From contig NC_009635.1 in the NCBI RefSeq assembly GCF_000017185.1, forward strand, positions 248,563 through 312,562: DNA of 64,000 nucleotides. The letters are read 5' to 3'. The translations under genes were made by a program, and so were the position numbers. How positions within the stretch are numbered: position 1 is the first letter of the stretch; each line of letters opens with the position of its first letter. Shown here piece after piece: positions 22,163-22,215 of this stretch. The notes beneath the pieces are model-generated. The model was given only the letters and a program-made list of their open reading frames with translations, was not told the DNA's origin and did not search any database. The stretch is from Methanococcus aeolicus Nankai-3 (GTDB taxonomy: Archaea; AGJL01; Methanococci; Methanococcales; Methanococcaceae).

Positions 22163-22199
22163 TGGGAGCTCCCATTTACTACTTAATTATAGTGTTTTT

Positions 22200-22215
22200 T
22201 ATCGGAGCTCCGATA
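22200..22215. repeat. 16-bp perfect palindrome TATCGGAGCTCCGATA in a convergent intergenic spacer
   Basis: Read directly. Contains the GGAGCTCC core. Lies 26 nt after a second palindrome, TGGGAGCTCCCA (22163-22174). Confidence 0.9.

Follow-up and report, generated by a model that had tools for sequence, protein, structure and literature searches.

What are two perfect palindromes doing between the ends of converging genes? The question arises in a 64 kb window of the Methanococcus aeolicus Nankai-3 genome (30.1% G+C; the window is the whole stretch analyzed), in which TGGGAGCTCCCA and TATCGGAGCTCCGATA share a short spacer between a GHMP-kinase-family gene, read earlier as RFA-P synthase, and a flavoprotein gene on the opposite strand. 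Both palindromes contain the octamer GGAGCTCC. A model that saw the letters alone (the sequence-only reading) suggested that such pairs form cruciforms or hairpins, terminate transcription in both directions or represent the full-length version of a recognition site. We favor, with reasonable though not firm confidence, another answer: both are ordinary members of a genome-wide GGAGCTCC family, resembling HIP1 (highly iterated palindrome 1) of cyanobacteria, with a preferred form of 10 bp, and they are not terminators. The gene map behind this analysis was drawn from open reading frames (ORFs) and cross-checked with the genes called on identical contigs and with Pfam.

GGAGCTCC is the sole hyper-abundant 8-mer of the window and its most frequent one. 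We counted 55 exact copies where dinucleotide-preserving shuffles predict 0.16, about 340 times chance (609 times the mononucleotide expectation), which amounts to ~0.86 per kb. The family is sharply defined: 55 of 67 GAGCTC sites carry the full G...C flanks, and exact copies number 55 against 16 for all 24 one-mismatch variants combined. Gaps between sites look exponential (coefficient of variation 1.13), with no quasi-periodic spacing in 64 kb, a length that offers little power to detect it.

The motif is written into genes in every frame and against codon usage. Genes hold 42 of the sites and intergenic DNA 13, compared with the 8.6 expected from a non-coding share of 15.6% (p = 0.08); the densities are 0.78 per kb in genes and 1.35 between them. 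The 42 coding sites spell Glu-Leu (18), Gly-Ala-Pro (15) or Ser-Ser (9). Glu-Leu is written GAG-CTC in 23 of 154 cases where codon usage predicts 1.4, and Ser-Ser is written AGC-TCC 11 times against an expected 0.9. Outside the archaellum operon (36657-46614) the Gly-Ala-Pro frame is saturated, all 14 instances being written GGAGCTCC (GGA-GCT-CCN) where ~11% would be expected. GGAGCTCC is a feature of the DNA, not a protein motif.

Preferred length and the convergent spacer

The preferred site is S-GGAGCTCC-S (S, G or C), a 10-base form. All tests of length and flanks were run on the same window that prompted the hypothesis. Palindromes of at least 10 bp make up 9 of the 13 intergenic sites and 11 of the 42 coding ones (Fisher p = 0.008; chance ~0.30, binomial p = 0.0035). 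The base beside the octamer is G or C in 20 of 26 intergenic half-sites, although intergenic G+C is 22% (p = 6e-9), and inside genes the Pro codon of Gly-Ala-Pro sites is CCC in 10 of 15 cases, although CCC supplies 13% of Pro codons (p = 3e-6). GGGAGCTCCC accounts for six of the intergenic 10-mers, CGGAGCTCCG for two and TGGAGCTCCA for one. Intergenic copies are more often 10 bp long because G/C is preferred beside the octamer.

Lengths of 12–16 bp are no more than chance. Extension from 10 bp to at least 12 bp occurs in 8 of 20 cases against an expected fraction of 0.29 (p = 0.2), the palindromes of at least 12 bp are split evenly between intergenic and coding DNA (4 each), and the finding of two 16-mers in a set of 55 sites has p = 0.07. 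Symmetry at the ±2 positions of intergenic sites shows no excess (5 versus 4.5 expected). Two proposals of the sequence-only reading, that intergenic copies occur as longer palindromes and that these are the preferred full-length recognition site, therefore hold up to 10 bp, where G/C flanks fill unconstrained positions, and not beyond. Its emphasis on pairing does not survive: gaps under 100 nt between sites number 4, against 4.4 expected.

These figures invite a simpler account, in which only the octamer is special and the long intergenic forms are chance extensions of 55 sites in A+T-rich DNA. Complementarity arises by chance at ~0.3 per flank step, and everything seen past 10 bp, together with the ordinary number of close pairs, is what this account predicts. 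It is nonetheless unlikely, since the ±1 positions are clearly non-random where nothing constrains them and the contrast between intergenic and coding sites appears at 10 bp.

A further alternative has the flanks of GGAGCTCC symmetrized, where tolerated, by template switching at a replication hairpin (quasi-palindrome correction), so that palindromes grow outward. Symmetry at ±1 among intergenic sites exceeds the permutation mean (9 versus 4.7, p = 0.007), G..C and C..G flanks both occur while mixed C..C or G..G flanks number zero among intergenic sites, and the 16-mer is embedded in a 26 bp quasi-palindrome, all as template switching would have it. The sample is very small, however, the ±1 bias is specific to G/C instead of extending to any complementary pair, and the symmetry stops short of ±2. 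We regard this mechanism as very improbable.

The spacer itself reads ...ATATTG TAG TGGGAGCTCCCA TTTACTACTTAATTATAGTGTTTTT TATCGGAGCTCCGATA TAAAAATT..., and both palindromes lie between convergent genes as first described. Two details of that description change: the 12-mer starts at the base following the TAG stop instead of overlapping it, and the palindromes lie 25 nt apart, not 26. The RFA-P synthase gene carries coding GGAGCTCC sites of its own at 21282 and 21943. Like intrinsic and archaeal oligo-T terminators, the 16-mer lies between convergent genes with T-runs adjoining it, a T6 at 22195-22200 on the plus strand and an A5 at 22217-21 that is a T5 on the minus strand. On each strand, however, the oligo-T run is 5' of the 16-mer and an A-run follows it, and the order is therefore the reverse of that in an intrinsic terminator.

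Could the palindromes end transcripts all the same? The proposal is that they act as bidirectional terminators or 3'-end RNA hairpins at convergent ends, as do the paired DNA uptake sequences (DUS) and uptake signal sequences (USS) of Neisseria and Haemophilus. Four sites fall within the 796 nt of convergent spacer, a density of 5.0 per kb (p = 0.005–0.018), compared with ~1 per kb in other spacers and the lower density in genes, and 3 of 8 convergent spacers carry a site. Together with its T- and A-runs the 16-mer gives a better fold than shuffled sequence does (z about -3). Both copies can also pair with each other in RNA because both carry a self-complementary 8-mer, giving -18.5 kcal/mol for an 86 nt plus-strand RNA (z = -2.35) and -25.6 kcal/mol for a 146 nt minus-strand RNA (z = -5.3).

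The weight of evidence falls on the other side. A scan for the intrinsic-terminator consensus, a G+C-rich stem-loop and then a T-run, found 0 sites in 21900-22500, and hairpins from single copies have stems of 4–6 bp and energies of -5 to -8.5 kcal/mol. Archaeal transcripts generally end at oligo-T tracts without hairpins. Of 60 gene 3' ends, only 6 come within 100 nt of a site, 31 have a run of at least five T within that distance, and more than three quarters of the sites (42 of 55) lie inside genes. In the closest relatives the corresponding spacer lacks both palindromes even though nearly all comparable coding sites are kept. The convergent-spacer excess is post hoc and is not repeated in relatives, whose convergent spacers hold 1 GAGCTC in 562 nt. 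We consider a terminator role highly improbable. Nothing points to a cruciform or hairpin role for these weak hairpins either. The T-runs alone fit the archaeal termination signal; if they are such signals, the 16-mer sits between two facing terminators, and both palindromes would lie past the oligo-T tracts at which the converging transcripts most likely end, without being terminators themselves.

A tandem duplication of a 39 nt palindrome-bearing unit was considered as the source of the pair and rejected. Identity reaches 77% over 22 nt, but outside the core it is ~42% (hand alignment), the chance level in A+T-rich DNA.

Relatives and the origin of sites

Coding sites are conserved well above control motifs. 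The nearest genomes are those of Methanothermococcus spp. (RFA-P synthase is 76% identical to that of Methanothermococcus strain Ax23, and HisC 69% identical to a Methanothermococcus okinawensis entry), and the closest relatives are two metagenome contigs, L028 and L029, with 87% DNA identity and the same gene order. These keep 8 of 9 comparable coding sites, against 23% of control 8-mers with at least six G/C (p = 5e-5). Neither of 2 intergenic copies is kept. The two genes flanking our palindromes converge there on a much shorter spacer in which neither palindrome is found, and ~100 nt of the 128 nt in the window, both palindromes included, have no counterpart. More distant relatives show nothing similar 3' of the RFA-P synthase gene.

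Coding sites, as these alignments show, arose by base substitution. A site confined to a single lineage aligns, in the other, with ordinary codons that specify an identical or similar residue, with no insertion or deletion (GAA CTT versus GAG CTC). In hisC, relatives read TGC GAA GAA CTT TTA where the window reads TGC GTG GAG CTC CTG, six changes in 12 nt that include Glu to Val; at a second hisC site, GGA TGT TCC CCA corresponds to GGG AGC TCC CCG and includes Cys to Ser. Clustering recurs among gains: those at 28262 and 29097 (hisC) and at 20839 (a CBS-domain gene) involve 5–7 base changes within 12–18 nt, in genes that differ by 13–17% overall, and the replacements are Glu to Val, Cys to Ser and Ile to Leu.

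The motif is patchy among close relatives, and its width differs by lineage. Motif-rich genomes include those of the L028/L029 organism and Methanothermococcus sp. Ax23 (NZ_CP157522.1), whereas SCGC AD-155-C09 is motif-free. In four distant relatives (L004, L007, L032 and L033) GAGCTC is plentiful but its flanks are loose. Four others, L005, L006, L169 (GCA_053937445.1) and L171 (an SRR10838516 contig), are free of GAGCTC; in L169 and L171 hisC shares 83% DNA identity with the window (28131-30435), and 22 kb contain zero GAGCTC. Six GAGCTC-enriched relatives (84 kb) place 101 of the 104 sites assignable on a gene map inside genes. Separately, several Methanobacterium loci have fewer GAGCTC sites than a rough base-composition estimate would give.

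The data show that GGAGCTCC is written and maintained by a sequence-directed process whose target is DNA, neither protein nor RNA. The process writes by substitution, in all frames and between genes, against codon preference, and it prefers a G/C pair flanking the octamer, usually giving GGGAGCTCCC and less often CGGAGCTCCG. Inside genes the protein would often fix the flanking bases; between genes both flanks would be free, which may be how the 10 bp form becomes commoner there. Length past 10 bp would be a chance product of A+T-rich flanks. The copies at 22163-22215 would then be recent ones, in a lineage-specific part of the spacer, the least constrained DNA there is, between converging transcripts. 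The agent could be a bias in repair or gene conversion linked to a site-specific DNA enzyme (a methyltransferase, for example), or a drive that arises when tagged DNA is preferentially taken up or recombined. Both candidates have counterparts in models of HIP1, one of methylation-linked biased repair (PMC4390886) and the other, in a preprint, of a tag promoting uptake or integration of self-like DNA; either could give graded, clustered gains. The methylome paper on Methanococcus aeolicus reports no GAGCTC motif, and 5-methylcytosine would have escaped its detection.

Several observations weigh against this reading of the palindromes as ordinary family members. The window encodes no DNA methyltransferase or other candidate agent. 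The intergenic sample is small (n = 13, of which 12 are independent), and the ±1 symmetry within it exceeds what independent half-sites predict, so a simple free-flank model is incomplete. GAGCTC-enriched relatives carry 0.47 sites per kb between genes and 1.37 in genes, so the intergenic density of the window, where the ranking is the opposite, does not follow from low constraint alone. The intergenic pair falls within an insertion/deletion difference from relatives, and the evidence for a substitution origin therefore comes from the coding sites.

The second candidate agent can also be cast as selection, with GGAGCTCC serving as a tag by which self DNA is recognized in uptake or recombination and the intergenic copies as the tag's full-strength form. 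By analogy with DUS/USS and HIP1, the density, the dominance of exact copies, the substitution origin and the conservation would all fit such a tag, as would the clustered changes that write sites in at the cost of amino-acid replacements. The site is palindromic, unlike DUS and USS, however; neither of the compared intergenic copies is conserved; and the proposal offers nothing specific on why intergenic copies should be longer. We think it the least probable of the alternatives considered here.

A bolder reading of the whole family deserves mention, and we hold it tentatively. GGAGCTCC may be an undescribed archaeal highly iterated palindrome whose unit is S-GGAGCTCC-S, written by an active, lineage-specific process that is switched on in some Methanothermococcus-like lineages and off in others at 83% DNA identity, and whose specificity has narrowed. 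Such a process would have to be strong enough to drive clustered multi-base changes and amino-acid replacements. Its specificity would have contracted from the loose-flank GAGCTC of distant relatives to the 8–10-mer found here, and its latest products, free of constraint, would be the intergenic copies. A literature search returned no paper tying GGAGCTCC or GAGCTC over-representation to methanogens.

The observation that prompted this work, that copies are longer between genes, is modest in itself: in the main it extends the motif's definition from 8 to 10 bp and disposes of the terminator proposal. In cyanobacteria, the question of what produces highly iterated palindromes, and what reads them, goes back thirty years. 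If the bolder reading is true, archaea would provide a second, independent system in which to ask it. An independent archaeal case would allow phylogenetic profiling for the responsible enzyme, by comparing carriers with non-carriers and following shifts in specificity, and with it the hypotheses of methylation/repair and of DNA uptake could be put to the test in organisms without MutS/MutL-type repair.

Other copies and neighboring features

Table 1. Palindromic copies of the octamer and the genes and spacers around them, in window coordinates
Feature	Position	Strand	Location or product	Basis
TGGGAGCTCCCA, perfect 12 bp palindrome, core GGAGCTCC at 22165-22172	22163..22174		convergent spacer; abuts the RFA-P synthase stop codon (TAG)
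TATCGGAGCTCCGATA, perfect 16 bp palindrome, core at 22204-22211	22200..22215		convergent spacer	sequence
TTTTTTATCGGAGCTCCGATATAAAA, 26 bp quasi-palindrome, 94% complementary	22195..22220		around the 16-mer	sequence, repeat search
Convergent spacer, 128 nt	22163..22290		holds both palindromes	synteny with L028/L029
GHMP-kinase-family gene (RFA-P synthase in the sequence-only reading), TAG stop at 22160-22162	21155..22162	+		gene map
Flavoprotein gene, convergent	22291..23949	-	fumarate reductase/succinate dehydrogenase type (FAD_binding_2 + Succ_DH_flav_C)	Pfam
TCGGAGCTCCGA, intergenic 12-mer	27436..27447		tandem spacer, TP_methylase gene / acylphosphatase-family gene
TGGGAGCTCCCA, intergenic 12-mer	27991..28002		second convergent spacer, acylphosphatase-family gene (+) / hisC (-)
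GGGAGCTCCC, intergenic 10-mer	11839..11848		downstream of ProRS gene
GGGAGCTCCC, intergenic 10-mer	34037..34046		1.2 kb ORF-free stretch upstream of archaellum operon
GGGAGCTCCC, intergenic 10-mer	55234..55243		between ELP3-like and transaldolase genes
TGGAGCTCCA, intergenic 10-mer	56986..56995		divergent spacer
GGGAGCTCCC, intergenic 10-mer	59660..59669
TTGAGGAGCTCCTCAA, coding 16-mer	2825..2840		PD-(D/E)XK nuclease gene, encodes E-E-L-L
TGGGAGCTCCCA, coding 12-mer, absent from the sequence-only reading	19523..19534		TraB-family gene
CCGGAGCTCCGG, coding 12-mer	24515..24526		eIF2-gamma gene; relative L028 has ...CCT at the +1 position
GGGGAGCTCCCC, coding 12-mer, absent from the sequence-only reading	29095..29106		hisC; motif-free relatives have GGGGATGTTCCCC

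Four other long forms named by the sequence-only reading (27436-27447, 27991-28002, 2825-2840 and 24515-24526) were all found where it put them (Table 1). It assigned the first two to a single spacer upstream of hisC (28131-29246, minus strand; histidinol-phosphate transaminase according to database sources). Both copies exist, but in two separate spacers: an acylphosphatase-family gene of 151 residues (27468-27923) separates the copies at 27438 and 27993, and the latter is downstream of the hisC 3' end, flanked by a T5 and a T7 run that face each other. Position 24117, in the spacer that separates the flavoprotein and eIF2-gamma genes, is where each of three independent same-strain assemblies (L001-L003) stops; their contigs contribute no sequence beyond that of the window.

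The archaellum operon stands apart from the rest of the window. Over 36657-48218, with five archaellin genes, flaC to flaJ and a prepilin peptidase gene, it has 1 site in 11.6 kb, and Glu-Leu, Ser-Ser and Gly-Ala-Pro are written with the motif in 1 of 46 cases there versus 48 of 209 elsewhere (p = 0.0004). The sequence PEFGAP in three archaellin paralogues is encoded with the one-off variant GGAGCCCC. Just upstream, the site at 35273, in a stretch called intergenic (35216-35342), falls within CCAGAGTTCGGAGCTCCTG, a sequence that the next archaellin gene repeats without change at its 3' end (36579-36597); by this match it looks like what remains of an archaellin gene's end, left between paralogues. 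At 35286-36656 the second archaellin ORF is roughly double the normal length, and its probable start is the MKILEF methionine at ~35343. The 1.2 kb between tRNA-Ser and the first archaellin gene (33341-34555) contains no convincing ORF and no Rfam match, and carries one GGGAGCTCCC; an Rfam scan of the window returned tRNA-Ser only.

The left end of the window (243-6661) is a defense- or repair-like cluster encoding a GmrSD-type restriction endonuclease, a PD-(D/E)XK nuclease, a UvrD-type helicase, a DUF6884 protein and a small kinase-like protein; the nuclease and helicase genes adjoin each other. The cluster holds 8 sites in 6.6 kb and is therefore not a recent arrival. In the relative L029, a G+C-richer stretch upstream of the TPR gene (1-330) has no counterpart in the window and might be an RNA gene or another neighbor.

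A+T-rich viral contigs (L168, L156, L146, L073, L078 and others) carry GGAGCTCC every 63 nt in tandem protein-coding repeats, in contexts like ACATCTTTAGAAGGAGCTCCTAAAGAAGTTGG. We rejected viral contigs with paired sites as kin of our spacer; the A+T-rich or high-density matches inspected were coding tandem repeats of 36–39 nt or 63 nt, or chance.

Comparison with known systems

As a short palindrome recurring in spacers, the motif recalls intergenic repeats of the repetitive extragenic palindrome (REP) or miniature inverted-repeat transposable element (MITE) type. We rejected this class. Intergenic flanks are unrelated past the 8–10 bp core, and neither the window nor any fetched locus contains a second copy of the spacer. 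Most copies lie in genes, and the coding copies align to relatives without insertions or deletions.

Uptake sequences are closer in some respects. In Neisseria DUS and Pasteurellaceae USS, exact copies dominate, copies originate by point mutation in both genes and spacers, and inverted pairs are enriched at gene ends. Our family shares their approximate density, the dominance of exact copies and the presence in genes and spacers alike. DUS and USS are, however, asymmetric 9–12-mers of which two inverted copies make a terminator hairpin, whereas each copy here is itself palindromic. The hairpins are short and lack U-tails, no terminator-like site accompanies them in 21900-22500, and only one close pair stands at a gene end.

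HIP1 (GCGATCGC) offers the nearest match. Like HIP1, GGAGCTCC is a palindromic octamer in hundreds-fold excess at about one copy per kb, found in every coding frame and also in non-coding DNA, written with non-preferred codons and spread by substitution without insertions or deletions. Like HIP1 it is conserved above control motifs, patchy among relatives and subject to drift between lineages, and it is scarce in a highly expressed operon, here that of the archaellum. HIP1 has palindromic flank extensions in 12 genomes, with 88% of Synechocystis copies in one 10-mer (PMC4390886), and GGCGATCGCC is an extended form in Synechocystis; here the extension is to G/C at ±1 only. The conservation of HIP1 in coding DNA and its scarcity in highly transcribed regions are documented (PMC5861425), and substitution spread, non-preferred codons, variant motifs and patchiness are described in PMC4390886, PMC5861425 and the introduction of the preprint.

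The differences are equally plain. The host is an archaeon of the Methanococcales, the sequence is GGAGCTCC with its GAGCTC core, and the DNA is 30% G+C. Spacing is not quasi-periodic in 64 kb, and one-off variants, common for HIP1, are rare. This is not HIP1 proper, since the motif is not GCGATCGC and the host is not cyanobacterial. Over-representation, presence in all frames and in non-coding DNA, substitution at coding sites, conservation and flank extension are nonetheless the properties of a HIP-type element. By that analogy, the GGAGCTCC family looks like such an element in an archaeon, different in sequence and with relatives that inform by having it on or off.

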